Source: Actinocrinis sp.
Lineage (GTDB): Bacteria > Actinomycetota > Actinomycetes > Streptomycetales > Catenulisporaceae
Direction: 5' to 3'
Assembly: GCF_035605935.1 (NCBI RefSeq)
Contig: NZ_DATNGK010000266.1
Coordinates: 24,688-88,687 of the forward strand
Length of the DNA: 64,000 bases
Part shown: piece by piece, positions 18,442 through 50,200 of the stretch
Layout: every line of letters begins with the position of its first letter
Numbering within the stretch: position 1 is the stretch's first letter
Position numbers and translations under genes: made by a program
The notes under the pieces: model-generated
Seen by the model: the letters and a program-made list of their open reading frames with translations, nothing else
Databases searched by the model: none
Told to the model about the DNA's origin: nothing

Positions 18442-18572
18442 AAGCGCGGCTGGTCCGTGTCTCGTTTCCGACCTGCGGACGCCTTGAGCGCGAGCGCACA
18501 GAACCCAATACTGCTCGGACGGCTCGGCGCGGCCTGACGGGTGCAGGCGTCCAACGCGAGAGGTCGCATGCC

Positions 18573-19967: not shown

Positions 19968-22900
19968 TGTTCTCCCCCGTCGCTGATCGCAGCCGATCTC
20001 GGGCGCGGCGGCGAGCCATCGTGTACGCCGCGGTGCTCGCCCTCCTCGCGGGCCTGCTCGGGCTGGGATTCCAGCGGATCGCCGTGGCCGACACGGCCGC
20101 CGATACGAACATCGCACTCGGCGCCGAAGCCACCGCCTCCTCGGTCCAGGGGGCCGACACGCCGGCCTCCGCCGCCGTGGACGGCGACTCGACCACGCGG
20201 TGGTCTTCCGCGTGGAGCGATCCGCAATGGCTGCAAGTAGATCTCGGCGCGAACGCGGCGATCAGCGGCTTCTCGATCCAGTGGGAAGCCGCCTTCGCCA
20301 CCGCGTACCACATCGAGGTCTCCAGCGACGCGACGACGTGGTCGCAGGTCTCTGCGACCACGTCGGGCGCCGGCGGCACCGAGTCCGTCTCGGTGCCGTC
20401 CGGCACCACCGGCCGCTACGTGCGGCTGACCGGCACCGCGCGCACCACCATCGGCGGCGCGCAGTACGGCTATTCGATCTTTGAGTTCCAGGTGCTCGGG
20501 CACTTCACCCAGCAGGCAGTGAGTACGAGCACTGACGCGGTCAGTCTGCAGCAGGGCACGTCGATAGACCTGCCGGTGAAGCTGAACACGGCCTCGACCG
20601 CACCGGTCACCGTGGACTACGCGACCACCGACGGCAGCGCGGTGGCCGGCGCCGACTACACCGCGGCCGCCGGGACGCTGACCTTCGCGGCGGGTCAGAC
20701 CTCGCAGACGATCCATCTGGTCGCGCTACCGAACGCGCTGCACGCGCCGACCAAGACCTTCAGCGTGACGCTGGCGAACGCGAGCCCGTCCGGGACCGCG
20801 ATCGGCCCGCGTGCCACCACGACTGTCAGTATCCTGAACAACAATCCGGTGCCCAGCGACGGGGCGGTGGCGACCGTCGACGACTTCGAGGGCACGGTCC
20901 CATTCAGCAGCGGCAATCCGGGCATCTTCACCTTCTCCTCCGACGCCGCATCGACGCCCACGCTCACCCAGGTCGCGGCCGCTGACCGGCCCGGCGCCGC
21001 GAGCGGCAACCACGCGTTGCAGGTCTCTTACAAGATCAGCGGCTGGGGCGGGTTCTCGCACGACCTGGCCGCGGCGCAGGACTGGAGCGCCTATGACGGC
21101 TTCAGCTTCTGGGTCAAGGGCACCGGTTCGGGCCAGAAGGTCGAGTTCGAGGTCAAGATGGGCGGCGCGGACGCAGAGCACGCCGAGCTGTGGCAGTCCT
21201 TCTTCACCGACGACGTCAACGGCTGGAAGAAGGTGCAGGTCGGTTTCGCGAACCTGAAGAAGCGGGCCGACTACCAGCCCTCTGGCGCACCGAACTCCGC
21301 GCAGATCTCGCTGGCCAGCATGTGGGGTTATGCGGTCAATCTGCCCGGCAACTCCACGAACACACTGCGGTTCGACGACTTCCAGGTCTACCAGTCGCTG
21401 CAGACCATCCAGGACTTCGAGGGCGCGAACCCGATCACGGACACCAATGGCGCGCTCGCGAACACCGGCGCGTTCTCCTGGGGCGGCGATACCAACAGCA
21501 CCCCGACGCTGAGCATCGCGCAGCTCGACCGGCCGGGCGTGACCAACAACCACGTGCTGCGCGGCGCCTGGGTCTCCGACAGCAGCTACGGCGGCATGAG
21601 CTACGACCTGGCGACGAACACGCCGCAGGACTGGAGCCCCTACGCCGGCATCGAGTTCTGGTTCTACGGCCACAACCCAAGCAATGACGCGGTGCCCGGC
21701 TCCGGCGCCAAATACGAGTTCGAAGTGAAGATGGGCGGCGCGGACGGCGAGCACGCCGAGCTGTGGCAGACCTTCTTCACCGACGACTGGCAGGGCTGGC
21801 ACCTGATCCAAGTGCCGTTCTCCTCGCTCAAGCGGCGCACCGACTTCCAGCCCTCCGGCGCGCCCGGCAACACCACGATCGACCTGACCACGATGCGCGG
21901 CTTCGCCCTCACCGAGCCGGCCGGCACGACCAACGGCGAGTTCGACGTGGACCAGTTCGCGGTCTACGGAATCAACACCGGGACCCTTGGTGCGCACGTG
22001 AGCACCGCTCAGGCCGTCTACGCGGTCAACCCCGGCGGCACCGCCACGGTCGGTGTGACGCTGACGACTGACGGCGGCAAGGCGTTGGATCACGACGTGA
22101 CCGTCAACTACGCGCTCGGCGGCGCAAGCGCGGCAGCCGGCACGGACTACACCGATGCCAGCGGCAGCCTCACCTTCGCCACCGGTTCGGCCTCGGGCAG
22201 CACCCAGTCCTTCACGGTGCAGACGCTGCCGAACACGGCCGCCTCGACCGCGAAGACGATCCCGATCCAGCTGACGCCCACCGGCGCCGACGTGACCGCG
22301 GACAACCCGGTGGTGGTCATCAACGCGCACGGGCTGCCATATCTGGACTCTTCGCTGCCGGTCGCCAAGCGCGTGCAGGATCTGCTTTCGCGGATGACGC
22401 TGGATCAGAAGATCGGCCAGATGACGCAGGCGGAGCGCGGTGACCTGGCGCATCAGTCGGACATCACCGGAGCGGCGCTCGGCTCGCTGCTGAGCGGCGG
22501 CGGCTCGACGCCGACCCCGAACACGGCGCAGGCCTGGGCCGACATGATCGATTCCTTCCAGGCGCGGGCGCAGGCCACGGCGCTGCAGATCCCGCTGATC
22601 TACGGCGAGGACTCAGTACACGGAGACAACAACCTGGTCGGCGCGACGGTCTTCCCGCAGAACATCGCGATGGGCGCGACGCGTGACCCGGCGCTGGTGA
22701 AGCAGGACGGCCAGATCACCGCGACCGAGACCCGCGCGACCGGCGTCACTTGGGCCTTCTCGCCCTGCCTGTGCGTGGCGCGGGACGAACGCTGGGGCCG
22801 CACGTACGAGTCCTTCGGCGAGGACCCGGCGCTGGTCACCCAGATGGAGACCATCATCGACGGCCTGCAAGGGGACGGCGCGCTGAACAAGGACACCAGC

Positions 22901-24538
22901 GTGCTGGCGACGGCGAAGCACTTCGTCGGTGACGGCGGCACGACCTACGGCTCGTCGACCACGGGCTCGTACAAGATCGACCAAGGCGTCACTCAGGTGA
23001 CGCAGGCTCAGCTGCAAGCGCTGTACCTGGCGCCGTTCCAGGCGGCCGTGCAGCAGCACGAGGTCGGCTCGGTCATGCCGTCCTATTCGAGCCTGCAGAT
23101 CATCGGCAAGGACGCCGCGCCGATCAAGATGCATGCCCGCGCCGACATGATCGCCGGAGTGCTCAAGCAGCAGTACGGCTTCTCCGGGTTCGTGATCAGC
23201 GACTGGCAGGCCATCAACCAGCTCGGCCCGGACTACGAGACCGACATCGAGACCTCGATCAACGCCGGCCTCGACATGATCATGGTGCCGGACCAGTACA
23301 CGACCTTCGAGAACGACCTGAAGGACCTGGTGACCAAGGGCCTGGTGGCGCAGTCCCGGATCGACGACGCGGTCAGCAGGATCCTGACCCAGAAGTTCCG
23401 GCTTGGCCTGTTCGAGCAGCCGTACGCGGACCGGACCAACGCCTCGACCATCGGTGACGCGGCGCACCGGGCCGTGGCGCGGCAGGCGGCGGCCGAGTCG
23501 CAGGTGCTGCTCAAGAACGCGGCCGGAGCGGACGGGAAGGCAGCGCTGCCGTTGTCCTCGACCGCGAACATCTATGTCGCCGGAAGCAACGCCGACAATC
23601 TCGGCAACCAGGTAGGCGGCTGGACGGTCACCTGGCAGGGCGCCTCGGGCAACACGGACGTGGGCACCACCATCTACCAGGGCATGCAAGCCGATGCGCC
23701 GAACGCGCACTTCACTTACTCGAAGGACGCCTCGGCTCCTACTACGGGCTCTGATGTCGGCGTCGTCGTGGTCGGCGAAACGCCATACGCCGAGGGCGTG
23801 GGCGACGTCGGCAACGGCCACACGCTCGACCTGACGGCGGCCGACAAGGCAGCCGTGGACAAGGTCTGCGCGGCGATGAAGTGCGTGGTGCTGGTCGTTT
23901 CCGGCCGGCCGATGAACATCGCGCCGATTCAGGCCGAGGCAACCGCGATCGTGGCCTCGTGGCTGCCCGGCTCGGAGGGCGAGGGTGTCGCCGACACGCT
24001 GTTCGGCAAGTCCGCGTTCACCGGCCGGCTGCCCGATACCTGGGCCAAGCAGGTGGACACCACCACTTCGCCTGTGGACGTTGGCGTACCGCATACGACT
24101 GGAACGTACGACCCGCTGTACCCGTATGGCTGGGGCCTGCGGACCGACTCGGAGAAGGCACGCGTTACCGCAGTGCGCGATGCGTTGGCCAAGCAGCCCA
24201 GCTTCATCGCGCAGTTTGGTGCGGTATCGCTCAGCGCGCTGCTGGCAGCAAAGGGCAACTGGAACGCGGACGGCTCGGTACGTAACCAGACAGTGGCGCT
24301 GGTGCTGATCGGACTCGCCTCCCCAGCCGTCTCCGGTACCTCGCCCGCAGCGGAGCAGAACGCGAACCTGCTGGTCTCGGTCGTGCGCGACTTCGCACAG
24401 CAGGCGATCACGGCGGGCGGAGCGGCGGCCATGACGAAGACCGCGGCGACGACGGCCGACGCCGAGCACGCCCTGCTCAGCGGCGAAGCGGAAGCGGCGA
24501 TCAGCGGGTTGACCAAGGCGATGCTCACCGCGAAGTAG
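19967..24538 (+). CDS. Giant secreted multi-domain GH3 beta-glucosidase/exo-beta-glucanase (F5/8 type C + Calx-beta + 2 duplicated CBM-like modules + Calx-beta + GH3)
   Basis: The ATG overlaps the GH16 stop (TGATG at 19965-19969). Domains in order: signal peptide; discoidin 'DGDSTTRWSS...WLQVDLG'; Calx-beta 'VTVDYATTDGSAVAGADYTAAAGTLTF'; two ~170-aa paralogous modules sharing 'DFEG...(V/Y)EFEVKMGGAD(A/G)EHAELWQ(S/T)FFTDD..GW...QV.F..LK(K/R)R.D(Y/F)QPSGAP'; a second Calx-beta; and GH3 'LDQKIGQMTQ' and 'GFVISDW'. Confidence 0.88.
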   Translation: MFSPVADRSRSRARRRAIVYAAVLALLAGLLGLGFQRIAVADTAADTNIALGAEATASSVQGADTPASAAVDGDSTTRWSSAWSDPQWLQVDLGANAAISGFSIQWEAAFATAYHIEVSSDATTWSQVSATTSGAGGTESVSVPSGTTGRYVRLTGTARTTIGGAQYGYSIFEFQVLGHFTQQAVSTSTDAVSLQQGTSIDLPVKLNTASTAPVTVDYATTDGSAVAGADYTAAAGTLTFAAGQTSQTIHLVALPNALHAPTKTFSVTLANASPSGTAIGPRATTTVSILNNNPVPSDGAVATVDDFEGTVPFSSGNPGIFTFSSDAASTPTLTQVAAADRPGAASGNHALQVSYKISGWGGFSHDLAAAQDWSAYDGFSFWVKGTGSGQKVEFEVKMGGADAEHAELWQSFFTDDVNGWKKVQVGFANLKKRADYQPSGAPNSAQISLASMWGYAVNLPGNSTNTLRFDDFQVYQSLQTIQDFEGANPITDTNGALANTGAFSWGGDTNSTPTLSIAQLDRPGVTNNHVLRGAWVSDSSYGGMSYDLATNTPQDWSPYAGIEFWFYGHNPSNDAVPGSGAKYEFEVKMGGADGEHAELWQTFFTDDWQGWHLIQVPFSSLKRRTDFQPSGAPGNTTIDLTTMRGFALTEPAGTTNGEFDVDQFAVYGINTGTLGAHVSTAQAVYAVNPGGTATVGVTLTTDGGKALDHDVTVNYALGGASAAAGTDYTDASGSLTFATGSASGSTQSFTVQTLPNTAASTAKTIPIQLTPTGADVTADNPVVVINAHGLPYLDSSLPVAKRVQDLLSRMTLDQKIGQMTQAERGDLAHQSDITGAALGSLLSGGGSTPTPNTAQAWADMIDSFQARAQATALQIPLIYGEDSVHGDNNLVGATVFPQNIAMGATRDPALVKQDGQITATETRATGVTWAFSPCLCVARDERWGRTYESFGEDPALVTQMETIIDGLQGDGALNKDTSVLATAKHFVGDGGTTYGSSTTGSYKIDQGVTQVTQAQLQALYLAPFQAAVQQHEVGSVMPSYSSLQIIGKDAAPIKMHARADMIAGVLKQQYGFSGFVISDWQAINQLGPDYETDIETSINAGLDMIMVPDQYTTFENDLKDLVTKGLVAQSRIDDAVSRILTQKFRLGLFEQPYADRTNASTIGDAAHRAVARQAAAESQVLLKNAAGADGKAALPLSSTANIYVAGSNADNLGNQVGGWTVTWQGASGNTDVGTTIYQGMQADAPNAHFTYSKDASAPTTGSDVGVVVVGETPYAEGVGDVGNGHTLDLTAADKAAVDKVCAAMKCVVLVVSGRPMNIAPIQAEATAIVASWLPGSEGEGVADTLFGKSAFTGRLPDTWAKQVDTTTSPVDVGVPHTTGTYDPLYPYGWGLRTDSEKARVTAVRDALAKQPSFIAQFGAVSLSALLAAKGNWNADGSVRNQTVALVLIGLASPAVSGTSPAAEQNANLLVSVVRDFAQQAITAGGAAAMTKTAATTADAEHALLSGEAEAAISGLTKAMLTAK

Positions 24539-30871: not shown

Positions 30872-31528
30872 TTATCGCTTGGCTGAGATCGTCGCAGGCT
30901 TCTTCTTCGACGGGTGCTTTTGCGCTGCGGCCCGCATGGAGGCGGCGTGGCCGTCCCCGTTCTTCACGGCGGCCTGGCTCGGCAGCGGCCCGAAGATAAG
31001 GTTGCCCGGCGCCTGCGGGTCATCGCTGGTGTAGAACTCGCGGATCGCCTGCTGCACCTCCTTGACGTCCAGCAGGCCATCGCCGTTGCGGTCCACCGCC
31101 CGGAACGCGCGTTCCGCGTCGTCCGCGCACACGCCGTACGCGTTGAACCAGGTGGTGAGTTCCTCGATGTCCAGCGTGCCGCTGTCGTCGGCGTCGATGA
31201 GGTCGAAGATGGTCAGCGCGATCGGGCCGATGATCCGGTCATAGCCCTCCTCGGCCTCCAGGATGACCCGCTCGCAGGAAGCGACGAACTGCTGGCGGGA
31301 GATCATGCCGGTCTGCTGCTGGTCCATCCGGCGGCTCAGGGCCACCCACAGCCGCAGGTAGAGCACGTGCACCTTCTCGTACTGCGGCGAATCCGTCGCG
31401 AAGTCGAAGGCGCGGCACACGCTCGCCGAGGCCACGTCGTAGTCGTTCGCGGTGATGTAGCCGTCGCCGTCCATATCGAGCAGTTCGAAGCGGCGTTCGA
31501 GCTTGGCCCGCTGGAAGTCGCTGAGCAT
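30872..31528 (-). CDS. EF-hand calcium-binding protein (calerythrin/CabB-like) with a Lys-rich tail
   Basis: The EF loops are 'DMDGDGYITAND', 'DADDSGTLDIEE' and 'DRNGDGLLDVKE'. The ATG at 31528 is preceded by AAGGAG. Confidence 0.85.
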   Translation of the reverse strand: MLSDFQRAKLERRFELLDMDGDGYITANDYDVASASVCRAFDFATDSPQYEKVHVLYLRLWVALSRRMDQQQTGMISRQQFVASCERVILEAEEGYDRIIGPIALTIFDLIDADDSGTLDIEELTTWFNAYGVCADDAERAFRAVDRNGDGLLDVKEVQQAIREFYTSDDPQAPGNLIFGPLPSQAAVKNGDGHAASMRAAAQKHPSKKKPATISAKR

Positions 31529-31722
31529 GAGCACTCCTTGCCTGGCTGGGGCGCGGCGTGGCCGGGTCGCGGGCGCGACGGTCCGCTGCGCGGTTCTCGC
31601 CCTCCAGTCATCCGGGTGCGCCGCCGGGCCGCATCCCCATGCATCCACGCAGGTGAAGGCCGAACCGGTGACGCGCGGGCGCTCAGCTGCGCACCTCGGC
31701 ACGCCGCTTCAGCCGCACCGCC

Positions 31723-33540: not shown

Positions 33541-33897
33541 GTGGGAAACTTTTTCCAGGTCGACCTCGACGTGCTCCAGCGCATGACCAAGACGCTGGGC
33601 GACGCCGGGGATCAGATGGAGTCCGCGCTCAAAGCGATGACTTCGTCGCAAGCGGGGCAGGTCGGCACCGAGGCGCTGAACAAGGCCGCCGACGCATTCC
33701 AGCACACCTGGCAGTACGGCCTCGGCCAGCTGCAGCAGGTGATCAAGGAGACGTCCGAGGGCGTCAAGAAGGCGCACGACGCATATAAGCAGTGCGACGA
33801 CGGCATCGAGCAGGCCATGTCGAAGATCAACAGCCAGGCCATGGGGGCCATCGACCAGGCGGTGCAGGCCGCGGCGGTGCACGGAGGGGCCAAGTGA
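33541..33897 (+). CDS. Small helical WXG100-superfamily-like protein (118 aa), first gene of a 4-gene operon
   Basis: The GTG start follows GGGGAGG. The opening 'FQVDLDVLQRMTKTLGDAG' is typical of Esx/Esp-type helical hairpins. The protein has two predicted long helices and no strict WXG ('HTWQYGLG'). Confidence 0.6.
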   Translation: MGNFFQVDLDVLQRMTKTLGDAGDQMESALKAMTSSQAGQVGTEALNKAADAFQHTWQYGLGQLQQVIKETSEGVKKAHDAYKQCDDGIEQAMSKINSQAMGAIDQAVQAAAVHGGAK

Positions 33898-35267
33898 GCG
33901 TGGTCGCGGAAGACGCAACGACGTACCCGAACCTCGGCTTCAACCCGGTACCAGGCGTGCCGGCGGATGTGGAGTCGATGAGCGCCGGCCTGGGGCAGGC
34001 GGTGTCCTCGATGCAGGAGTCCGGCTCGCTGCTCGACCAGATGCGCGACGCGGGCAGCGGGGTCTGGCAGGGCGAGGCCGGCGACAAGTTCCGTGAGCAC
34101 CTGGACACCAAGCTGGTCACCGACCTGCAGCACGCGCACGAGTCGCTCAACAACGCGGTCGGGGTGCTCAAGAGCTGGCACGGGGACCTACTCGGCTTCA
34201 AGGACGTGGCGGCCAAGCTGGACCAGGAGGCGGCCGAGGCCAAGCAGGCGGCGGCGCGCGCCGACGAGGCGGTCAAGCAGGCCGAGGCCAATCCGGACCT
34301 CAAGCTGGTCGGCCAGTTCTTCAACACCCAGGAGGCGCTCCAGGCCGCCCAGTCGCGAATAGACCAGGCGCAGGGCGCACTGCGGGACGCGGGTTCGGCC
34401 GCGCAGAACGCGCACGCCGAACTGGACTCGATCATGAAGCGGGCGCAGGAGCTGGCCGCGCAGCACGAGGCGGCGGCCCGCAAGTACGCGCAGGAACTGG
34501 AGCAGGCCACCAAGGGCCTTGCCCCGCACAAGCCGGGCTTCTTCAGCAGCCTGTGGAACGACTTCACCAGCGGCCTGAGCGCGGTGGGCAACTGGGTGAA
34601 GAACCACATCGACGTGATTCACTCGGTGCTGTCCACGATCTCCGCGGTAGCCGGCCTGATCGCGCTGTGCACCCCGCCGCCGATCGATGCGATCGCGGGC
34701 GCGGTGGCCATCGGCGCCGGAATCGGCGCGCTGGCCTGCGACCTGGCCAACCCGAAGGTGCGCGACGCCGTCGGCGGCCTGCTGACCGGCCACTTCACCA
34801 TGGACAACCTGAAGAACGCGTCCGCGATGGGCCTGGACGCGCTCAGCCTGATACCGGGCGGGAAGCTCGCGGGCGCGGCGCTGAAGGACGGCGAGGTGGT
34901 CCTCAAGGGCGCCGAAGGGATACCGACCCTGGCCGCGAAGCTCCCCGGGCTCGCCCAACTCGGCGGCGACGCGACGCGGGCGTTCGGCGACGCGGCGCAG
35001 GCCGGGGTCACCACGTTGGAGGACGGCACCAAGGCGTTCGACGCGGCCGGCAACGTGCTGCGTCAGGGCTCGAATATCGCGCACGGCCTGAGCCTGCCGG
35101 TCAAGCTCGGCGTCGGCGCGGCGAACAAGATCTTCAAGCTCGCCGACACCGCCACCGTGGACGGGGCCAAGTCGCTCGCCCAGCTCTCGCAGAACCTTGA
35201 GCTCGGCTGGAAAGCCAAGTCCGTGGTGAGCAGCCTGTACGGCGACGTGAAGCAGGCGGTGTCGTGA
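33894..35267 (+). CDS. T7SS-style effector-like protein: WXG100-like N-terminal domain + coiled coil + hydrophobic helical hairpin + Gly/Ala-rich C-terminal domain
   Basis: GTG at 33894 overlaps the upstream stop (GTGA) and follows GGAGGGG. Features are 'YPNLGFNPVPGVPADV', 'GVWQGEAGDKF' (W at nt 34065) and an Ala/Gln/Glu-rich coiled coil of ~130 aa. Two hydrophobic segments follow, 'VLSTISAVAGLIALC' and 'AIAGAVAIGAGIGALAC' (small-xxx-small zipper). Confidence 0.65.
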   Translation: MSVVAEDATTYPNLGFNPVPGVPADVESMSAGLGQAVSSMQESGSLLDQMRDAGSGVWQGEAGDKFREHLDTKLVTDLQHAHESLNNAVGVLKSWHGDLLGFKDVAAKLDQEAAEAKQAAARADEAVKQAEANPDLKLVGQFFNTQEALQAAQSRIDQAQGALRDAGSAAQNAHAELDSIMKRAQELAAQHEAAARKYAQELEQATKGLAPHKPGFFSSLWNDFTSGLSAVGNWVKNHIDVIHSVLSTISAVAGLIALCTPPPIDAIAGAVAIGAGIGALACDLANPKVRDAVGGLLTGHFTMDNLKNASAMGLDALSLIPGGKLAGAALKDGEVVLKGAEGIPTLAAKLPGLAQLGGDATRAFGDAAQAGVTTLEDGTKAFDAAGNVLRQGSNIAHGLSLPVKLGVGAANKIFKLADTATVDGAKSLAQLSQNLELGWKAKSVVSSLYGDVKQAVS

Positions 35268-35983
35268 GCACGCTCGGCAATATCCTCGACTCCGCTCCCG
35301 ACACGGAGGATCCGGACGCGCTCAACTGCTGGGTAGAGCTGCCGCCCGGCTACTTCCCGCTGCCGCTCGACGACATCGACAACGCCCTGGCCACCGCGGA
35401 GGCGAACCTGCGCGAGCTGGCTCCGGAGGAACAGCGGCCGCTGCTCGCCGCGGTGGTGGGCACGCTGATGGTGCTGCTGGAGCAGTTGCAGGAGCGCAAC
35501 GCCGCGTACTGCGGCATCGGCTGGCACACCGCCGAGGACGACACGGTCGTCCCCTCCAGCCTGGTGGTCTCGATCCAGCCATTCCCGCACAAGCGCAACC
35601 CGCGCCTGGTGATCAAGGACCTGGTCGAGGCGCGCGCGGAGGCCGGCGAACACGGCCAGGTCGACGTGGTCGACCTCAGCCGCGGCCCGGCGCTGTTCTT
35701 CGAGAGCGTGCTGACCCTGCCGCGCCCGCAGCTGCCCGGCCAGCCGCCGAACGAGCAGCCGGACGCCGAGGTCTACCAGCTCCAGGCCCTGGTGCCGAGC
35801 GCGGACGGCCGCAAGCTCGCCGCGATCGACTTCACCACGCCCGACATCCCACATGGACCGAGATTCCGGGCCATGATGGTGCTCATGGCCGACTCGGTGT
35901 CCTTCACCGCTCCTGCGGGGAGCGAGGAGGGCGGGGAGACGGCCAGGTCGATCAGCCAGATCCTTGGAGGACTCGCCCCGTGA
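35264..35983 (+). CDS. Hypothetical soluble protein (239 aa), third gene of the operon
   Basis: GTG at 35264 overlaps the upstream stop (GTGA). It has no TM or signal sequence and no motif I recognise. Confidence 0.6.
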   Translation: MSTLGNILDSAPDTEDPDALNCWVELPPGYFPLPLDDIDNALATAEANLRELAPEEQRPLLAAVVGTLMVLLEQLQERNAAYCGIGWHTAEDDTVVPSSLVVSIQPFPHKRNPRLVIKDLVEARAEAGEHGQVDVVDLSRGPALFFESVLTLPRPQLPGQPPNEQPDAEVYQLQALVPSADGRKLAAIDFTTPDIPHGPRFRAMMVLMADSVSFTAPAGSEEGGETARSISQILGGLAP

Positions 35984-36651
35984 CCGGCTCGCTCCCGTCG
36001 TGGTCGCCGCTCAACGACCCGCAGTTGTCCGCGCAGATTCAGGCCCGGCTCGCCAACGGGCAGGAGAAGACGCGGGTCGAGGCGCAACGCGATTTGTACT
36101 TCCTTGAGCGGTTCGAATGGCGCGAGTACCCCGCCAAGTGCGGACGCTGGCATTTGGGCGAGGCCGGGTCGTTCACGCTGACCGGCGGCAGCAACCTTTC
36201 GGGGCCGTGGACCAAGATGGACTGGAGCCCGGACTACCGGTGGGTGCTGCTGCTCGATCCGGCCAGCCGGCAGCCGATCGCCGCCCATATCGTCAACGAC
36301 TGGTGGGTCGAGGATCCGAAGGCGCGTCAGGTCGTGCCGGTAGCCAACGGGGTGACGAGCTTCTGGTTCGCGGGCAACCCCCTGCTCGGCGGAATGTTCA
36401 CCCCGGCCGGCAACGGCCATCGGGCAGTGTTCGGATACCGCAGCGGGCACTCGGAGGTCGCCAACTTCGTCAACTGGACGAGCGGTCCCGCCCGATTCGA
36501 GCAGCTCGCCGCTCAAGCCGCTTCGTGGACCTACACGGATAAGGTGGCGAGCGAATTCGGTCCCTGGCTCGCCGATCAGCCGCAGCAGCCGCCGCGGCCG
36601 CGCCGCTTCAGCCGCCTGGCCTGGCAGGCCACTACCCCGACGCAGCCATAG
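35980..36651 (+). CDS. Hypothetical Trp-rich soluble protein (223 aa), fourth gene of the operon
   Basis: GTG at 35980 overlaps the upstream stop (GTGA). It is Trp-rich (13 W), probably beta-rich, with a Pro/Gln-rich tail and no recognised motif. Confidence 0.6.
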   Translation: MTGSLPSWSPLNDPQLSAQIQARLANGQEKTRVEAQRDLYFLERFEWREYPAKCGRWHLGEAGSFTLTGGSNLSGPWTKMDWSPDYRWVLLLDPASRQPIAAHIVNDWWVEDPKARQVVPVANGVTSFWFAGNPLLGGMFTPAGNGHRAVFGYRSGHSEVANFVNWTSGPARFEQLAAQAASWTYTDKVASEFGPWLADQPQQPPRPRRFSRLAWQATTPTQP

Positions 36652-36664: not shown

Positions 36665-36940
36665 CTACAGGCGGGCCGCACCCTCGCGCGCGGCTTTATC
36701 CAAGCGCAGGGCGAGGGCCGGGCAATCGGTCACCGCCCTGCGTGCGTCTGCGAGCAGCTGTGCGGGGATGGCGCGGTCCGCGATGATCGGATAACCCCAT
36801 TCGTCCAGCGCTATGTGTTCGCCGAGCAGTTCGGCGCATAGGCCGTGGCCGCTGCATCTCGTCGGGTCCAGCCGCAATCGAGCGCCCGCGCCCGAAGCAG
36901 TGCCGGAGTCTGTGGCTGCGTTCGTTGCGTGCATCGTCAT
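36665..36940 (-). CDS. Small single-cluster ferredoxin (CxxHxxC...CP type)
   Basis: The sequence 'RLRLDPTRCSGHGLCAELL......DEWGYP........A..AV..CPALALRL' fits this type. Its ATG overlaps the upstream stop (ATGA at 36937-36940). Confidence 0.75.
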   Translation of the reverse strand: MTMHATNAATDSGTASGAGARLRLDPTRCSGHGLCAELLGEHIALDEWGYPIIADRAIPAQLLADARRAVTDCPALALRLDKAAREGAARL

Positions 36941-38268
36941 CGCCAGTCCTCGTCGGTGCGCGGCGGGTTCATCGGCGAGGGCAGGGGAAGGAACGCGCGG
37001 TCGTTCGACGCGACGCACATTCCCTGCCCGTGCCGCCATAGCTCCTCTTCGAAGACTGTCAGGGCGCTGCGCACCAGCCGGATACTTCCGTCCGGGTGAT
37101 GGCAGGCGCCGCGCCGCTCGATCTGTCCCGCCCAGCGGGACACATCGGCGCGCTCTCGGGCGTGAACGCCCGGCCCCGCGAGTACTCGCAACGCGTGCGC
37201 GATGCGTGGCAGACCATTGAGGCACGGCCCGCATTGCCCGGCTGACTCGGCGGCGAGGTACGAAACGACCCGCGCGGTCTCCCGCAGTCCGCAGCAGTCA
37301 GCGGGCAACGCCGCCAGCACTCCGGCGCCGAGCGAGGCGCCTTCTGCTCGCAATGCCGCGTTGGTGAGCGGCAGTGCGGTAGCGCGATCCGCGGGCAGCC
37401 AGGTGCCGTGGTAGCCGCCGATCAGCACTGCGCGCGGCGCCGATCCGCCTCCGGCGGCGGCCGTGGCGGCATCGAGCCCGAGCAACTCACCCAGCGGGGC
37501 GCCGGGCGCCGTCTCGATCACCCTCGGGGTCGCGTTCGGCCGGTGCACCGTCGCCAACAGCGTGCCGGGTTCGTCCGAAGTCCCGGCCGCACGAAACCAG
37601 CCGGCTCCGTAGTCTGCGATCAGCGCGAGATGGGCAAGCGTCTCAACGTTCTGCACCAGAGTCGCAGCGCCGCCGATGCCGCGTTCGCTGACGCGCAGCG
37701 GCGCGTATCGAGGCAGCGCAAGGCCGCCCTCGATACGGTGCACAACCGCGGTTTCCTGACCGGCGATGAAACGCGGCGCAGCTTCGACCACCGTGACCGG
37801 CACGCGGTCGACACCAGCGCGCACTCGCTCCGCGACGGCTTCCCGTACCCGTCTCAGCACCCGTTGATCGGGGTGTATGTATGCGTATGCCTGCCGTGCG
37901 CCGACGGCTTCGGCGGCCAGCTGCAGCCCGTCGAGCACGAGATGCGGGTCCGAGTAAAGCAGGGTTCTGTCTTTGCACGAGGCGGGCTCGCCTTCCGCGC
38001 CGTTCGCCACGACCACTGCGCCGCCAGCTGCCCGCAATACCGCCTCAAGCTTGCGATAGGTAGGGAATCCGGCTCCGCCCCGACCGGTCAAGCCCGCCGC
38101 ACGGACCTCGTCTATCAACACCTGGGGCGCGCCCCGATACGAGGCGGGACCGTACAGCGCCCGGTGCTGTTCGAGGCTGAGCGACCGGTCGGGGTAAGGC
38201 AGAAGCCGGCGGAAATCGGAGCCTTGGTACACCGACGTATCCGAGGGCTGAGTCGCCATGACGTTCAC
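36937..38268 (-). CDS. NuoF-like NAD(P)H-binding flavoprotein with SLBB and 4Fe-4S region
   Basis: It has 'GLTGRGGAGFPTYRKLEAV' (the NuoF 51-kDa Gly-rich motif) and the cluster region 'SAGQCGPCLNGLPRIA...RGACHHPDG'. GTG at 38268 overlaps the upstream stop. Confidence 0.8.
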   Translation of the reverse strand: MNVMATQPSDTSVYQGSDFRRLLPYPDRSLSLEQHRALYGPASYRGAPQVLIDEVRAAGLTGRGGAGFPTYRKLEAVLRAAGGAVVVANGAEGEPASCKDRTLLYSDPHLVLDGLQLAAEAVGARQAYAYIHPDQRVLRRVREAVAERVRAGVDRVPVTVVEAAPRFIAGQETAVVHRIEGGLALPRYAPLRVSERGIGGAATLVQNVETLAHLALIADYGAGWFRAAGTSDEPGTLLATVHRPNATPRVIETAPGAPLGELLGLDAATAAAGGGSAPRAVLIGGYHGTWLPADRATALPLTNAALRAEGASLGAGVLAALPADCCGLRETARVVSYLAAESAGQCGPCLNGLPRIAHALRVLAGPGVHARERADVSRWAGQIERRGACHHPDGSIRLVRSALTVFEEELWRHGQGMCVASNDRAFLPLPSPMNPPRTDEDWR

Positions 38269-38885
38269 TGCTGCCTACCCCCGCTGAGTTGTTCGGTCAG
38301 GACGGAAACGCGCGCGGCGCGCGGCACATCGTGCGGCCTTCGACCCTCGCTGACCCGCCAGGCCAGCGCCGCGAGGACGGCGAGGACGCATCCGATGCCG
38401 AGGCCGAGCAGCCAGCCGCTCTGCATGTCGGTGCTGCTGCCGAGGCTGTGTGCGACGGATACCGGCCAGGAGAGGTAAGCCAGCCAGTGCACCCACCGCC
38501 AGGTGCGATGCCCAATCCGGGCGCGAAGCAGGCTCGTGATGATCAGAGCGAGGATGAGGTCGAAGGCGACCGTACCGAGCCCGAGCCACAGTGGCTCGTA
38601 AGAGGCGGCGAACGGGATTATCGCGTCTGTGAGGCGGATGTTCACGTAGGAGTCGGCGACCGCGGTGACGATATGGATCGCCAGGAAGGCGACCGAAAGT
38701 AACGAGATGCTGCGGTGCAGGCCGACCACGGCGAACCTCGGCAGGCCGGGCAGCCTGCCATGTTTCTGGACCGCGACGCCGAGCACGACGACACCGGTGA
38801 GCATGATCAACGACACGACGCCGGTGGCTCGGCTGGTGTACCAGAGCGCGGTACTCGACGTGATGCCGCTCGCCGCGGCGCTCAT
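38265..38885 (-). CDS. Ferric-reductase-like transmembrane (heme b, MsrQ/YedZ-like) protein
   Basis: The 206-aa protein has 5-6 TM helices with conserved His residues ('GLHRSISLLSVAFLAIHIV', 'VHWLAYLSWPVSVAHSL'). Its start overlaps the ApbE stop (ATGA). Confidence 0.75.
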   Translation of the reverse strand: MSAAASGITSSTALWYTSRATGVVSLIMLTGVVVLGVAVQKHGRLPGLPRFAVVGLHRSISLLSVAFLAIHIVTAVADSYVNIRLTDAIIPFAASYEPLWLGLGTVAFDLILALIITSLLRARIGHRTWRWVHWLAYLSWPVSVAHSLGSSTDMQSGWLLGLGIGCVLAVLAALAWRVSEGRRPHDVPRAARVSVLTEQLSGGRQQ

Positions 38886-39928
38886 CTTCCGATTCCAGTC
38901 CCAGGCGAGAGCGCCGCGCGCATTCCGCCGCCCGCGAGCGAGCCGACTGACTCAGCCTGCTGATCCGGCGGCCAACCGCCAGTGGTCCGCACCCGCCCGT
39001 CCAAGTCCACCAACCGGGCCGCAATCCCCCGCTGCTCGAAGCGCGCGAGCGCCGCACGCCCCCTGATGATCGCGCCGGTCGCCGCGACGTTCGCGGTGAG
39101 ACAGTCCGGCGCGGTGACCGAGACGGTGCGCCACACGGTCGGCGCCGGCAGTCCGTCGCGCGGGTTGAGGATGTGGTGCAGCACGGCGCCGCCGCGTTCC
39201 CAGCGCCGAGCGGTCGTGCTGGAGGTGGCCAGCGCGCCGCCGCGCAACGCGATCGTCTGCGCCGGGCCGGTCGGCGCGTCATCCGGATGACCGGTCACGT
39301 CCTGGACCCGCACCCGCCATCCGCCGCGCGGCGCCGGTCCCGCGGTGGCGATGTCGCCGCCCAGTGAGACGAGCACGCCGCAGCGCAGCCGTTGCGCGAT
39401 CCGCGTCGCCGCCCGGTCCGCGGCCCACGCCTTCGCGGTCGCACCGAGGTCGAGGCGGGTGCCCGGCGGCATACGCAGGCTGCGCGAGGCTCGCTCGAAG
39501 GTGATCCGCCGCCATCCCGGCACCGGCCGCGCGCTGAGCGTGATCGCGGGGCCGTTCGGCGCGACCAGCGCGAAATCTCGGTCGTATCCGAGGGCTGACA
39601 TTGCCTCGCCGACGGTCGGGTCGATGTCGCCGTCGCTGGCGCGCGCCGCGTCCAGCGCCACGCCGATCGCCTCGGTCAGCAAAGGGGAAAGAGTCACCCA
39701 GCGGCCGTCAGCGGCGTCGAGCGCGGCCAGTTCGGAATCCGCGCGAAAACGGCTGCACGCGCGGTCGAGACCATCGAGGTCTGATTCGAGGAGCGAACGC
39801 GCCGCGGCGAGCCGGCCGGGGTTGGTGACCAGCAGGCTGATTCGGGTGCCGATGGCGGTCCAGTCGCTCGCCCCGACGCGCTCCTCGATCGGCGGGGCGG
39901 GCCGGGTCGCGGTGGTGGCGCTCATCAC
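38882..39928 (-). CDS. apbE: ApbE-family FAD:protein FMN transferase
   Basis: Motifs are 'SRFR.DSEL..LN', 'GDIDPTVG', 'LDLGATAKAWAAD' and 'LVSLGGDIA'. The start is the GTG at 39928 or the ATG at 39925, and both overlap the upstream stop. Confidence 0.85.
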   Translation of the reverse strand: MMSATTATRPAPPIEERVGASDWTAIGTRISLLVTNPGRLAAARSLLESDLDGLDRACSRFRADSELAALDAADGRWVTLSPLLTEAIGVALDAARASDGDIDPTVGEAMSALGYDRDFALVAPNGPAITLSARPVPGWRRITFERASRSLRMPPGTRLDLGATAKAWAADRAATRIAQRLRCGVLVSLGGDIATAGPAPRGGWRVRVQDVTGHPDDAPTGPAQTIALRGGALATSSTTARRWERGGAVLHHILNPRDGLPAPTVWRTVSVTAPDCLTANVAATGAIIRGRAALARFEQRGIAARLVDLDGRVRTTGGWPPDQQAESVGSLAGGGMRAALSPGTGIGR

Positions 39929-40218: not shown

Positions 40219-40359
40219 CGCTGCGTACTCCGTCCGCTAGGTCCGCTGATCACTGCTGTATCGCGGTCCACTATCCGCGGCGCTGATGAGCGGCACGCTG
40301 GGCTGCGGCGAAGGGGAAGATGAGAAAACTCAAGGAAGTTGCTGAGAGCGGACGCCGAG

Positions 40360-40806
40360 CTACTCCGGAGGCAGTCGGCGCAAACGCTTGATCTGCGAGC
40401 GCCGCGTCTTGTCCTCCAGCCGCCGCGCCACCGCCCCCTTCGACGGCTTGGTCGCCCGCCGCGCCCGCGGCGCAGCGGCGATCGCCTCGGCGAGCAGCGC
40501 GGCCAACCGGTCGCGGGCGGCTTGGCGATTGCGCAGCTGAGAGCGGAATTCCGCGGCGGAGATGGCGAGTTGACCGTTCGTCAGGCGGCGCTCCAGCCTG
40601 GCGAGCGCTCGGGCCTTGAGTTCGGGCGGCAGCGCGGACGAACCGGCCAGGTCGAAGATCAGCTCGGCCCTGCTGTCGGTCGTGTTCACGCCTTGGCCGC
40701 CGGGCCCGGACGATCGGGAGAAGCGCCAGTTCAGCTCGTGCGCCGGAATCACCACGGCGGCGGTGACGCGCAGCGGTCCGGAGGCAAGGTCCTCGTCCGA
40801 AGGCAT
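40360..40806 (-). CDS. arfB: Alternative ribosome-rescue factor ArfB (peptidyl-tRNA hydrolase, YaeJ family)
   Basis: The 148-aa protein has the GGQ motif 'SSGPGGQGVNTTDS' and a basic C-terminal tail (KTRRSQIKRLRR). Confidence 0.9.
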   Translation of the reverse strand: MPSDEDLASGPLRVTAAVVIPAHELNWRFSRSSGPGGQGVNTTDSRAELIFDLAGSSALPPELKARALARLERRLTNGQLAISAAEFRSQLRNRQAARDRLAALLAEAIAAAPRARRATKPSKGAVARRLEDKTRRSQIKRLRRLPPE

Positions 40807-41003
40807 GACCCGCTCCCCCCACGTTTCGCGATCACCAGACGACGGCGCAGTCTACGGGCATCGATGGCCGGCGGCCAGGGACTTGTTCGCAAAGCGCGGC
40901 GCCATCTCGTTCCCGACATCTCGTCCGCGACAAGCAACGGTCGCGCCGGCCGGATGGTTGGACCCGGGCGGCGCGACCGTGAGCGCTTGTGCGAGGCGCC
41001 TGA

Positions 41004-41588
41004 CTACAGCGACGGCAGGCCCGGAACCGGGAGCGAGCCGACTCCCGGAACACCGGGCAGGCCTGGCAGACCCGCCGCGCCCGGAAGCGAGGGCGCGCTG
41101 GGAGCGCCAGGGAGCGAAGGCAGTGAGGGCAGGCTCGGCACGCCGGGCAGGCTGGGCGCGGCCGGGAGGTTCGGCGCGGAGGGAAGCTGCGGCGCCGCCG
41201 GGAGTTGCGGCGCCGCGGGAAGCGACGGGGCGCCTGGCACCGATGGCGCGCCGGGTGCGGACGGTGCGCCGGGTGCGGACGGTGCGCCGGGTGCGGACGG
41301 CGTGCCGGCCGTGGCGCAATCCAGGCTCTTAATCGCGTCGTTGAGCTTGTTGGCCTGCGCGACCTGCGCCGTCGCGCCGGCCAGATCAGGCGGGGTGGCC
41401 AGCAGGCTCTTCGCCGCCTGGGTCAGCGTCGCGGAGTAGTCCGCGAGCAGGCCCGCGCAGGTGGACGGGGAGACCTGCTTCGGCCCCTGCGCGCCGTTCG
41501 TCGCCGCCTCGGCTGCGGTCGCCCCGCAGAACGCCGTGGTTCCCGCGATGGCGAGGGTCGCGATCCAGCGAGCGTGTCGCTTCTGCAC
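41004..41588 (-). CDS. Secreted protein with a helical N-domain and a Pro/Ala/Gly/Ser/Leu-rich repeat C-terminus
   Basis: GTG at 41588 follows AGAGGA and gives the signal peptide (V)QKRHARWIATLAIAGTTAFCGATAAEA. The C-terminal half reads 'SAPGAPSAPGAPSAPGAPSVPGAPSLPAAPQLPAAPQLPSAPNLP...'. Confidence 0.65.
   Translation of the reverse strand: MQKRHARWIATLAIAGTTAFCGATAAEAATNGAQGPKQVSPSTCAGLLADYSATLTQAAKSLLATPPDLAGATAQVAQANKLNDAIKSLDCATAGTPSAPGAPSAPGAPSAPGAPSVPGAPSLPAAPQLPAAPQLPSAPNLPAAPSLPGVPSLPSLPSLPGAPSAPSLPGAAGLPGLPGVPGVGSLPVPGLPSL
41245..41298. repeat. 18-bp tandem repeat x3 (GG(C/T)GCGCCGGGTGCGGAC) encoding SAPGAP hexapeptides, within a broader degenerate Pro-rich repeat tract
   Basis: Read directly. 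It is in frame within the CDS 41004..41588. Confidence 0.8.
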
Positions 41589-47272: not shown

Positions 47273-50200
47273 TCAGGACTCTTCGTCAGCGTCATCCAGC
47301 TGCGCGCGGCTCGCGAAGAACTCGGCGTTCTCGCGGGCCGTGCGCGCGAACTCCGGGTAGCCCCAGCGCTCGCAGCCCTCTGCGAACGCCAGCTGCCACT
47401 GGGAGGCGCCCGCGGCGTTCTCCCCGAGCACCGCGATGGCCAAGCTCAGTGTCTTGAGTGCGGCCTCCAGCGCCGCGACGAACTCTTCGCGCGCGTCGCC
47501 CTCTTGCGGATGCTCGAGCAGTGACCACAGGTCGCGCGCCCCGGCTTCGGCGGCCCTCTGTGCTTCCGGGAGCAGTTCCTCGGTCTCCTCCTGCGACAGC
47601 GTCTGCATCTCGATCCGCTTGACCACGTGCTTGAGCCGCAGTGTGCGCGCCCGCGCGATCAGAAAGTCCCGATAGCGCTCGGCAGTCGAGTCGTCCTCGG
47701 CGCAGGCGCGTAGGTGCGCGACCGCTTCGTCGAGCTGTTCGAGTGCTGCTTTGATATCGGTCGCGGCCAGCAGCCGGGCCACCGACTCGAGCGCCGCGGT
47801 GGTCGGTTGGTGACCTGCCGACGACCGGCCGTCCCGCGCCGATTCCCGATACGCCTCAAGCGCTGCCGCCTCATCGCCGTCCTGCTCGGCCGACTCGGCG
47901 AGTTGGTGCAGCAGCCAGGCGCGCGCGGTCGGGTAGTCCTTCGGGACGAGCGCGAGCACGTCGCGCAGCACACGTGCCGCGTCGCGCGCTCGATCGAGCT
48001 TGCACAGGCTGATCGAGTAGTGCAGAGAACTGAGATGGATCAGCTCTCGGCATTCGTCGTCATCCCAGCGCCCCATGATCTGTGCGAGCGCCGGATGAAA
48101 GAAGTTCAGCGCCGTTTCGTGGCGCCCTGCGCGGTGATGCACCTCACCCATCAGCAGCCTGGCTCGCGCCGCGCCCACCGGATCGCTGCCCGCCAGCAGG
48201 CGCGCCGCCTGCACCGCCGCCTGCGCCACCTCGTCGTCCCGCGCGTGCTCCGGATCCCGTGAGCTTTGCGCGTTAATCGCCTCGGCGAGCAGCAGCGCGG
48301 TCAGCCCGGGCAGGTCGGGGGCGACCGGTGGATTGCCGAGCTGCGAGACGCGCCGGGCGCAGCGCTCGGCATCGGCGGGCTGGTGTGCGGCGAGCAGCAC
48401 CTGTCCTCGGCGCAGCAGTGCCTCCGCAGCGAGCCAGGGCTGGTATACCGCGCTGTACACGTCGGCCAGGTCGCCGAGGCGATCCAGCAGGCTGCTGATA
48501 TACCCGGTGGCTTCACCTTCGTCGCCCTGCCGAGCGAACATGCGAGCCATGGCGCCGGTGACCTCGGCCCAAGCCCGCGCCGCGGCGGCGTACTGAGGCG
48601 TGGCGCCGTGCGCGTCGGCCAGCTCCCGGAAGGTCCGGTACTCCTCGGAGGCTTCCTCGGCGATGAGCCGGCCGGCCTCCTCATCGATGTCCGGTTCGGC
48701 GTCCACGGCCCGCCGCCAGCGGTCCAGGTGCCGGTAGAGCCCGTACAAGCGGACCGTCACGAGCTGGGTCCCGGTGATCCGACCCCCCTCGAACTCGGCT
48801 TGCGCCGCTTTCCAGGCTTCCGCCTGCACGGTCGCAGCAGCCTCAGCCTCTTCTGCGCCGACGAGGTACCGCTGGAACGCGCTCATCGCCCGGCAGCGCA
48901 GCGCGTCGCCGGTGCGGCCGAGCGTCGCGTAGAGCGTTGCGGCGAAGGCGAGTTGTTCGTGGGCCGCGGCGTGATCGGCGCGCTGCGCGAGCGCGGTACC
49001 GCGGCTTTCGGACAGTTCCGCCGCCACATCGTCGCTCAGCCCGGTTCCGCTCGCGGCGACCTGCTCCCAGGCCGCGCATGCGTGCGGATGCCGCAGGAAG
49101 GAGAGGTAGCGCGCACGAGCCGCCAGCGCGTCCACGGCTGCGAATCCACGCGGGAGTGTCCGCGCAGCGCTGCCGTCGACGCGGCCGCGGGCGTCCCAGG
49201 GCATCGGGATCGGTGGCCATGTCGCTTCAAGCCAGCCCGACTCCAGCCATCCGGTCGGCGGCGGCAACTCGTCGTGCCGCAGCTTGGCGGTGCGCCAGGA
49301 CTCCAAGGTCTCCGCATGCTCGCTGCCGCCGACGGCCGCGTCCTGGTGCGCGGCGTAGTCGGCGAGCACTGCGTCGAGTTCGGCGTAGAGGGCCGCGGCG
49401 GTGACGATCTGGCGCGGCGAGCGGGTGATCGGCAGGTCCCCGTGTCCGGCATCGACGAGCAGCTTGAGGAAGAGCAGAAAGCGCCCGTGCACCCACCAGT
49501 ACTCGCCGACCGCGTCACGATGTGCGGGCAGCCAGTCGATGTGGTCGTGCAGGATCTCCAGGCCGCGCAACACATCGCGGGTCCGGTTGACGAACAGCGC
49601 GTGCAGTTCCAGTTGGCGCGGCAGGTCGCGGCGGCGGCGGACCACCGGGTACCCGAGCCGGTGGTGTTGCCGGGCCTTGTCGAAGCGGTCGAGGTTGAGC
49701 AGGTCGATCATCACCTCGCCGTGGGCGATGCCGACGTGCGAGCGTTCGCAGCTGCGCACCCCGGCGATGATCGCCAGCCAAAGGTCCACGGCCTTGGGCA
49801 GTTCGTCCTGCCGCTCGTACCAGTAGGCCGCGGTGGCCAGGTCACAGGCGTCGCAGGCGGCTCCGGCGTCCCCATCCTCGGCCAGCAGAGCCTCGATACG
49901 CAGGGTGGCCAGCTCGTTCTCGCCGCGGCGGCGGTGAATCCAGTACCGGCTGCGGTGTACCGCCCGCAGGCTGTAGCCGCCGGTCAGGTAGAAGGATTCC
50001 ATTTCGTCGGTGAGCCGATCGACCTCCGCGGCGGGCACCCGCTCGTCGGCGTCGAGGACATCGACGACATGCTGGAAGTGCTCACGGAAGCGGAAACGCA
50101 GCGCCGCGTCGAAGACCTCTGACTTGGTCTGCCAGATCCGCCAGGCCCGGCTGAAGGCGAGGACCATGCCCTGCTCGTCGCCGTCCTCCTGGCAGTCGTC

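Follow-up and report, generated by a model that had tools for sequence, protein, structure and literature searches.

A conserved four-gene module of Actinomycetota as a candidate Esx cargo with a hydrophobic hairpin

Introduction

Some secretion systems export proteins that carry hydrophobic helices. The LXG protein EsxX of Staphylococcus aureus contains a glycine zipper, depolarises membranes and is toxic from both membrane sides. In the cytoplasm it is neutralised by ExiAB, a soluble α/β pair in which a groove takes up the zipper, and the polytopic proteins ExiCD protect against EsxX from outside (PMC12744356). TelE, another such protein, travels as a seven-protein pre-secretion complex. In type VI secretion (T6SS), Eag chaperones shield the transmembrane helices of effectors (PMC7773334). 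For Actinomycetota, it has been found that candidate Esx substrates encoded outside Esx clusters adjoin small WXG100-like genes (PMC13622651). Here we describe a locus that shares traits with all of these. It lies in a 64-kb stretch of DNA from Actinocrinis sp. (64,000 nucleotides of contig NZ_DATNGK010000266.1, referred to below as the window, to which all positions refer unless another locus is named), and the protein under study, g2, is encoded at 33894–35267 on the forward strand, together with three neighbours that we call g1, g3 and g4.

An earlier note, made from the letters of this DNA, had described g2 as a WXG domain followed by a long coiled coil and a glycine-zipper-like membrane hairpin, and had proposed a membrane-disrupting effector. 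We tentatively favour the view, with somewhat less than even weight, that the four genes form an uncharacterised cargo module of actinobacterial Esx secretion (type VII secretion system of the a type, T7SSa), in which a protein with a membrane-inserting hairpin is accompanied by helper proteins. Such a module would resemble TspA, TelE and EsxX, the glycine-zipper toxins of firmicutes, by analogy and not by homology. No paper or annotation was found for the module, and all named members of the g2 family are called hypothetical.

A translationally coupled set of four genes

The DNA of the window is actinobacterial (65–73% GC), and the closest relatives of g2 are Actinocrinis (Catenulisporales) proteins of 90–99% identity. 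The reading frame at 33894–35267 is a real gene of 457 amino acids. Its GC content at third codon positions (GC3) is 0.90, and its GTG start codon at 33894 forms a GTGA overlap with the stop codon of g1, with a GGAGGGG Shine–Dalgarno sequence ahead. Because of this overlap, and because the 457-residue homologues start at the same residue, we take 33894 as the true start; the longer version in the list of open reading frames (ORFs), which starts at 33792 and has 491 residues, was dropped since it overlaps g1 by 105 nt. The same type of GTGA overlap joins g2 to g3 (35264–35267) and g3 to g4 (35980–35983), and therefore g2 is the second gene of a translationally coupled set of four.

All four genes are read on the forward strand. 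The first, g1 (33541–33897, 118 residues), encodes a WXG100-like small helical protein of the DUF6317 family, the likely targeting partner of g2, from a GTG start at 33541 with a GGGGAGG Shine–Dalgarno sequence ahead. Downstream, g3 (35264–35983, 239 residues) encodes a soluble α/β protein that may act in the cytoplasm as a chaperone of the hairpin or neutralise it, and g4 (35980–36651, 223 residues), a fast-evolving accessory gene with a GGAGGA Shine–Dalgarno sequence upstream, encodes a protein that is soluble in this window. Near-identical contigs in a rhizosphere metatranscriptome span most of the set from g1 to g4, the first beginning 8 nt ahead of the g1 start and the last ending 8 nt short of the g4 end, and we regard this coverage as weak evidence for transcription of the module. 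A scan for consensus promoters and terminators found none, as expected for a high-GC actinobacterium.

One might suspect that the features of g2 are chance products of an Ala/Gly-rich, high-GC coding sequence, since Ala/Gly-rich segments are common in a genome of 68–70% GC and weak matches of hidden Markov models (HMMs) to many coiled-coil families are compositional. The probability of this is negligible in our opinion, as the conservation data refute it: there are more than 200 relatives with invariant motifs and four-gene synteny across orders, and the hairpin is the best conserved part, besides the GC3 value already given.

The targeting half of g2 and its partner g1

Residues 1–105 of g2 (33894–34208) form a WXG-like domain, as judged from conserved columns, predicted helices and HMM matches in relatives. 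In its W58-Q-G60 turn (34065–34073), W58 and G60 are invariant in an alignment of 97 proteins and in another of 81 loci, and AlphaFold2 (AF2) places helices 23–52 and 61–131 on the two sides of this turn, so that the helix-turn-helix with W-x-G in the turn that defines the WXG100 superfamily is present. An N-terminal motif, Y11-P-x-L-G-F-x-P-x-P-G21, is equally invariant, with a predicted local distance difference test score (pLDDT) of 93 for residues 11–20. When 20 members of the g2 family were compared with curated models, WXG100 matched 16 of them (best 4.6e-4), T7SS_signal PF21725 eight (best 1.3e-7) and LXG six; many relatives also bear a precomputed PF21725 label. The only match of the family profile among PDB sequences was a weak one, to the ESAT-6-like entry 4i0x (E 0.011). 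The WXG domain of the earlier note is therefore upheld, with HMM support that is weak for the g2 of the window itself.

The protein encoded by g1 would supply the complementary signal. It scores 28.1 bits against Pfam DUF6317 (gathering threshold, GA, 27.4) and weakly matches EspC (19.8 bits, GA 23.5), WXG100 and the Lap1-type family TIGR04197. Its W57-Q-Y-G60 sequence (33709–33720) belongs to a W-x-[YF]-G motif with W57 and G60 kept in 79 of 79 relatives, and its Y82-K-Q-C-D86 sequence (33784–33798) is a YxxxD/E motif, with Y82 present in all 79 and D or E at position 86 in 78. This motif reportedly marks mycobacterial T7SS substrates, a finding attributed to Daleke et al. in 2012. As g1 bears YxxxD/E and g2 bears WxG, there is one motif per partner, as in Esx heterodimers, and the adjacent partner gene with YxxxD/E that would be looked for beside a protein of this kind is thus present. 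A literature search on PF21725, T7SS_signal and DUF6317 found no publication.

Residues 106–215 (34209–34538) follow as an Ala/Gln/Glu-rich antiparallel helical rod, recognised from the AF2 helices and the heptad spacing. The model contains two 60-residue helices (72–131 and 146–205, pLDDT 92–98) joined at a turn with invariant A130, N133 and P134 (A130-N-P-D-L). Invariant Ala and Leu residues recur at the 3-4-7 spacing of a/d-type positions (106, 109, 113, 116, 123 and 130 in the first helix; 152, 159, 166, 184, 187, 199 and 202 in the second), and the rod ends in a conserved L209-A-P-H-K-P-G215. On the basis of this model we read the heptad region as an intramolecular antiparallel 'alacoil' rod that would lengthen the WXG hairpin in the manner of LXG domains or of EspB, and probably not as a separate oligomerising coiled coil. 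Of the long coiled coil claimed before, the heptad-spaced helices stand, with pLDDT above 90, and in our reading an intramolecular rod takes the place of a separate coiled coil. A Foldseek search of the PDB with the g2 model returned only BAR-type long helical bundles with E above 0.06, which is uninformative.

The hydrophobic hairpin and the C-terminal region

The sole hydrophobic stretch of g2 (KD19 hydropathy above 1.4) comprises residues 241–283 (34614–34742), which hydropathy and conservation define as a helix-turn-helix hairpin around T260-P-P-P-I-D265 (34671–34688). The 97-protein alignment shows no exception at T260-P-P-P263 or at D265, and TPPP is kept in at least 93% across the 81 loci. 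The two adjacent hydrophobic helices split by TPPPID were thus recognised correctly from the start. Across the same loci, conservation in blocks of 20 residues is highest at residues 241–280, and the wider segment 216–325 is the slowest part of g2, with identities to the window of 91% in Actinocrinis-like loci and 41–60% in other orders (41% in Nocardia).

Both hairpin helices carry small residues every 3–4 positions. The A270xxxG274xxxG278 zipper reported before is present in the g2 of the window, but G274 is specific to Actinocrinis and is replaced by V or A in most other genera. What the family conserves is a small-xxx-small face and no canonical glycine zipper. The summed Hessa ΔG of the hairpin is about +0.9 to +1.7, which is marginal for a transmembrane helix. 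Hydrophobicity on this scale was considered as a means of telling a toxin hairpin from a resident anchor and was dropped, because the values overlap those of genuine transmembrane helices. AF2 predicts helices 229–259 and 264–284 here with pLDDT of 42–55.

The C-terminus is Gly/Ala/Leu/Lys-rich, as had been noted (A 17%, L 14%, G 14% and K 8%). Within it, the Ala/Gly/Leu/Lys-rich region 326–430 (34869–35183) stands out in the identity comparison as the fastest part of g2: from near to far lineages its identity to the window drops from 56% to 29% and then to about 10% (9–12% in other orders). Conservation partly recovers in an amphipathic tail, residues 431–457 (35184–35264), with the consensus N-x-x-L-x-W-K-x-K ... 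L-Y-x-D-V-K-x-A, in which D451 is near-invariant.

A phmmer search with the hairpin and C-terminus (216–457) against 1.84 billion representative proteins gave 38 matches, nearly all of which are proteins of about 300–500 residues whose hairpin has the same place along the chain, or pieces of such proteins. Since nearly all of them share one architecture, the hairpin is not a payload that is shuffled between delivery domains. Similarly, the arrangement typical of polymorphic toxins, with a conserved N-terminal domain and interchangeable C-terminal toxin domains, was not found for g2.

The accessory proteins g3 and g4

The AF2 model of g3 has a pLDDT of 83.6 and a predicted template modelling score (pTM) of 0.80. 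Its leading Foldseek matches are all of one fold class: MTC28 (E 1.5e-3), Tsi3 (2.1e-3), SciW (4.7e-3, probability 0.99), DcrB (5e-3), PsbP, LpqN, TiME and Mog1, with E from 1.5e-3 to 8e-2 and probabilities of 0.94–1.0 down to rank 15. They include SciW complexed with the transmembrane domain of Rhs1. From this model, g3 probably belongs to the PsbP/DcrB/DUF1795 fold class. At the sequence level no Pfam, NCBIfam or PDB match was found for g3, and none of 77 members matched DUF1795 or PsbP at E up to 5. Hydropathy gave no transmembrane segment.

Besides the fold, g3 has features of its own. The YCGxGxH signature (Y82-C-G-x-G-x-H88, 35507–35527), S98 and P113-R114 are invariant across the 81 loci, which belong to five orders, and AF2 predicts an extra N-terminal helical pair relative to the Eag-type fold. 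The Cys and His, five residues apart on one predicted β-strand, could bind a metal or a ligand, or act together in catalysis, neither of which would be a chaperone feature. A relation of g3 and g4 as paralogues, like ExiA and ExiB, was ruled out (hhalign probability 0.2%).

No hydrophobic segment is present in g1, g3 or g4 of this window, and the window g4 gave no Pfam, NCBIfam or PDB sequence match; no relatives of g4 were detected outside the module. Its core is recognised by the motifs PW..Y..GRW, LLDP and WFAGDP..G. Its identity to the window falls from near to far lineages as 54%, 26% and about 17%, a rate of change that matches that of g2 326–430. Tandem copies of g4 stand downstream of g2-g3 in at least five loci: L079 (three copies, 11953–14276), L063 (11808–12987), L062 (11780–12981), L055 (11870–14021) and L029 (8045–10174). 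Streptomyces sp. NPDC003077 has three copies, Tomitella biformata, Nocardia paucivorans and N. pseudobrasiliensis have two each, and Streptacidiphilus sp. N8-3 has two and a fragment.

In Nocardia and one Streptomyces, g4 starts with two or three hydrophobic helices flanked by Arg/Lys, and each of the Streptomyces copies has 2–3 of them; by the positive-inside rule the core of such an anchored g4 would face the cytoplasm. The RDD domain PF06271 was found in six of 29 g4 relatives, all of them long Nocardia forms (best 2.4e-8; for example L058, 11935–13149), and did not match the window g4. In Pseudonocardiales a separate RDD gene stands beside the module (L001, 9962–10537 on the reverse strand, convergent; L019, 3702–4448, reverse strand), and none was seen adjoining the module in this window.

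Immunity genes of T7SS toxin loci typically change fast, are duplicated and have membrane-embedded variants (PMC9484751). By these traits, which do not prove the role, g4 behaves like an immunity gene, and this is what makes a toxin role for g2 plausible. The T7SS-type targeting domain fused to a membrane hairpin that the earlier note proposed has also gained from its context, namely from the WXG100-like g1, the fold of g3 and the fast-evolving, duplicated g4.

The same export signals would serve a protein that is secreted by the T7SS and is not toxic. In that case the hairpin would anchor g2 in the envelope of the producer or of a partner cell and the variable C-terminal region would be displayed at the surface, for example in contacts between cells or hyphae or to fend off parasites attached there, with g3 and g4 acting as export chaperones only. 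Exposure at the surface would agree with the rate of change of g2 326–430. The module is conserved, its inheritance looks vertical, and for Actinomycetota a recent study describes an Esx effector that is defensive and not a toxin (PMC13622651). Nevertheless, Pfam and HMM searches found no cell-wall anchoring or adhesin-type domain in g2, the tandem duplication and the membrane and RDD forms of g4 fit neutralisation better than pure chaperoning, and no data point directly to surface display. We think that this explanation is quite improbable.

Distribution of the module and weighing of the readings

A pattern scan of one genome per species gave 204 relatives of g2, and the best 80 loci were taken for synteny. 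They belong to Actinocrinis, Actinospica, Streptacidiphilus, Pseudonocardiaceae, Amycolatopsis, Actinoplanes, Paractinoplanes, Winogradskya, Krasilnikovia, many Nocardia, Tomitella and one Streptomyces. In HMM searches of the locus ORFs, g3 adjoins g2 in every locus; g1 is found in all but two, in one of which (L009) the contig ends within g2, and g4 was present in 74 of 84 (about 88%). The order g1-g2-g3 is kept across the loci, with g4 directly after g1 in Micromonosporales (g1-g4-g2-g3). The module is thus conserved across five orders, and the flanks of the 80 loci contain no other conserved neighbours, only genus-specific genes and common families such as the major facilitator superfamily (MFS) and short-chain dehydrogenases/reductases (SDR).

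Two kinds of linkage were considered and dropped. No T7SS core genes are present in the 64-kb window or conserved in the flanks of the 80 loci, so that linkage to such genes was abandoned. A search of plasmids gave one match, of 34% identity, on a 2.8-Mb Streptomyces replicon, and plasmid carriage was also abandoned because this match is a divergent copy of the same module. The copy, unannotated in the plasmid collection, lies at 4628–7840 of the 2.8-Mb linear replicon of Streptomyces sp. BHT-5-2 (L084) and consists of a 98-residue WXG-like gene with YxxxE, a 483-residue g2-like protein in which a 'CPPLSG' turn replaces 'TPPPID', a 252-residue ORF in the position of g3 (identified by position alone) and a 191-residue protein with one hydrophobic helix.

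A number of results weigh against an Esx cargo with a membrane-active hairpin, the two absent linkages among them. The g2 of the window stays below every curated HMM threshold tried, namely WXG100 (PF06013 and TIGR03930), LXG (PF04740) and T7SS_signal PF21725; against TIGR03930 it scores 16.6 bits for a cut-off of 44.85, and PF21725 gives no match at E up to 1. The family as a whole does not keep GxxxGxxxG in its canonical form, and AF2 confidence is low for both the hairpin and the C-terminus. Among the 1.84 billion representative proteins, the hairpin was never seen joined to another delivery domain. Identity follows taxonomy and flanks are stable within genera, so that the whole module has apparently been inherited vertically with stable synteny. 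The structural matches of g3 are weak (E of at least 1.5e-3, query-normalised TM-scores of 0.25–0.39), and several proteins of this fold are not chaperones. By hydropathy, no polytopic membrane immunity protein is encoded in this window. Finally, the genes flanking the module have a metatranscriptome depth similar to its own, and carry-over of DNA is possible.

A toxin role is weakened by the fixed architecture, by inheritance that is apparently vertical and by the absence from the window of a membrane immunity protein, and nonetheless is plausible in our opinion. For the membrane-disrupting effector of the earlier note, this means that the targeting domain fused to a hairpin is supported and that the effector step has evidence against it, which includes the lack of homology to TspA, TelE and EsxX and a Hessa ΔG of the hairpin in the range of weaker helices from an MFS transporter encoded in this window.

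Many of the same observations could be expected if g2 were not secreted at all. The earlier note had offered a membrane-embedded structural component as its alternative, and a resident membrane component is still a candidate. The g2 protein would then be a resident scaffold whose hairpin enters the producer's own membrane from the cytoplasmic side, as a monotopic or re-entrant anchor, with the rod and C-terminus in the cytoplasm, while g1, g3 and g4, joined by the RDD protein in some lineages, would be cytoplasmic or membrane partners in an envelope or housekeeping process. A hairpin that is never shuffled onto other domains and that is the slowest-evolving part of g2 suits such a role, as do the synteny and seemingly vertical inheritance over five orders. 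In some lineages g4 is fused to an RDD membrane domain or a gene for one adjoins the module, and the Arg/Lys-flanked helices of g4 in Nocardia and one Streptomyces would put its core at the cytoplasmic face of the membrane, which fits a pre-secretion complex equally well. Moreover, g1–g4 appear to have no signal peptides: no hydrophobic N-terminus of this kind was seen by sequence and hydropathy, no dedicated predictor having been run. The same absence also counts in favour of an Esx cargo. The BAR-type bundles, the only structural neighbours of g2, point the same way at an insignificant level. However, near-invariant YxxxD/E in g1 and WxG in g2 have no obvious reason to persist in unsecreted proteins, the hairpin helices are only marginally hydrophobic (summed ΔG about +1 to +3, compared with about −1 to +1 for the anchor helices of g4), and fast evolution with tandem duplication of g4 is unusual for a housekeeping partner. 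On balance we consider a resident scaffold unlikely.

Proposed mechanism and significance

If g2 is an Esx cargo, as we tentatively favour, the module might work as follows. The g1 protein, a WXG100-like hairpin with YxxxD/E, would pair with the WxG-bearing N-terminal helices of g2, and the two would form an elongated helical bundle that presents a bipartite WxG + YxxxD/E signal. This bundle would be recognised by an EccC-type ATPase encoded elsewhere in the genome and lengthened by the Ala-rich rod, as in LXG/Lap complexes. In the cytoplasm of the producer, g3 with its Eag/DcrB-like fold would keep the marginally hydrophobic hairpin soluble, perhaps with the help of g4. Once exported, the hairpin could enter a lipid bilayer, self-associate through its small-residue faces and perturb the membrane by ion leak or depolarisation. 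As for g4, it might be a specificity or immunity factor that interacts with g2 326–430, an interaction hinted at by the equally fast evolution of both. The analysis shows the anatomy of the domains, the conserved motifs, the operon and its synteny, the fold class of g3 and the rates at which the parts evolve; the g1–g2 pairing, the binding of the hairpin by g3, export, membrane insertion and toxicity we infer.

A bolder proposal, which seems rather doubtful to us, is that the module represents the first family of membrane-inserting effectors of actinobacterial Esx/T7SSa, in which a hairpin is combined with a single WXG100-like partner, an Eag-fold chaperone and, in g4, a fast-evolving and sometimes membrane-embedded immunity factor. 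The function of actinobacterial Esx/T7SSa is largely obscure beyond mycobacterial virulence, and few cargo families have a predicted activity. We think that the module is therefore of value as a testable cargo candidate, with an apparently membrane-active element, one-partner targeting and two dedicated accessory proteins, and its hosts include the cultivable genera Nocardia, Actinoplanes and Streptacidiphilus. Should g2 turn out to be a resident scaffold instead, WXG and YxxxD/E modules would be used outside secretion.

Other features of the window

The module is flanked by unrelated genes on the opposite strand. Upstream there is an AidB-like acyl-CoA dehydrogenase, and two genes upstream of the module lies a gene for a 276-residue protein with several EF-hand calcium-binding motifs (30872–31702, reverse strand). 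The downstream flank (36665–39928, reverse strand) encodes a protein with a 4Fe-4S ferredoxin domain, a NuoF-like protein with FMN and Fe-S, a membrane protein resembling ferric reductases and an ApbE flavin transferase, and looks like a small flavin-dependent membrane electron-transfer system. Beyond it, an ORF at 40339–41439 (forward strand) matches the collagen triple-helix repeat and overlaps an RF-1 (peptidyl-tRNA hydrolase) ORF at 40360–40851 (reverse strand) that has the better codon-position GC; the collagen match is probably an artefact of GC-rich sequence read off-frame.

Three ORFs of about 1000 residues on the reverse strand (15213–18209, 47273–50479 and 50367–53543), in which Pfam found either nothing or a MalT-like TPR match below threshold, may encode large regulators. 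On the forward strand, 18363–24538 contains the gene of a GH16 protein with a ricin-type lectin domain followed by that of a 1528-residue GH3 enzyme with F5/8 type C, Calx-beta and CBM11 domains, probably a secreted β-glucan degradation pair. An L-arabinose cluster occupies 54807–63021 (forward strand), with a LacI-type regulator, an FGGY kinase, a class II aldolase/epimerase, an AraA isomerase, a sugar-binding protein and an ABC ATPase.

Comparison with known systems

Colicin and diphtheria-toxin T-domain pore formers bury a hydrophobic helical hairpin in an initially soluble protein. The marginal Ala-rich hairpin of g2, with the acidic D265 at its tip and predicted amphipathic helices on its flanks, is reminiscent of them. 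There is, however, no match in sequence or fold, and the C-terminal helices of g2 are predicted at low confidence.

The mycobacterial pairs EsxA/EsxB, EspA/EspC and EspE/EspF are closer in their targeting, as they combine a small WXG100/EspC-like protein with a larger WxG-bearing partner and place YxxxD/E on one partner and WxG on the other. The espACD operon, like the module, lies away from the core ESX locus. On the other hand, the EspA_EspE family is absent from the listed matches of g2 relatives, and we know of no comparable conserved hydrophobic hairpin in any of these three pairs.

With TspA, TelE and EsxX, which have Lap partners and the neutralisers ExiAB and TipE, the module shares an N-terminal helical targeting domain of the WXG superfamily with a rod as its extension, a neighbouring gene for a small helical partner that bears an export motif, a small-residue-rich hydrophobic segment that is the likely active part, co-transcribed genes, and soluble α/β proteins encoded downstream, which in the case of EsxX sequester the zipper. 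The differences are also considerable. Searches of Pfam, PDB sequences and representative proteins gave no homology of g2 to these toxins, which belong to the firmicute T7SSb, whereas the host here is actinobacterial and the system would hence be T7SSa. They use two Lap proteins, and the module has one small partner. Their zipper is C-terminal, whereas g2 has a central helix-PPP-helix hairpin followed by about 170 residues; its family does not conserve GxxxGxxxG, and its payload is not polymorphic. In addition, g3 and g4 do not match DUF5085, and g1–g4 stand away from a T7SS locus.

The Eag chaperones (DUF1795; SciW, EagR and EagT6) of the T6SS differ from g3 in sequence, as the likeness is at the fold level only, with no DUF1795 match even at E up to 5, and g3 has its additional N-terminal helical pair and its own YCGxGxH motif. 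What they have in common is the predicted fold and the position of the gene beside one for a protein with hydrophobic helices that would need to be kept soluble before export. If g3 does shield the hairpin, chaperoning of the T6SS Eag type would be linked to neutralisation of the T7SS ExiAB type, and two unrelated secretion systems would be using the same fold for exporting a hydrophobic helix.

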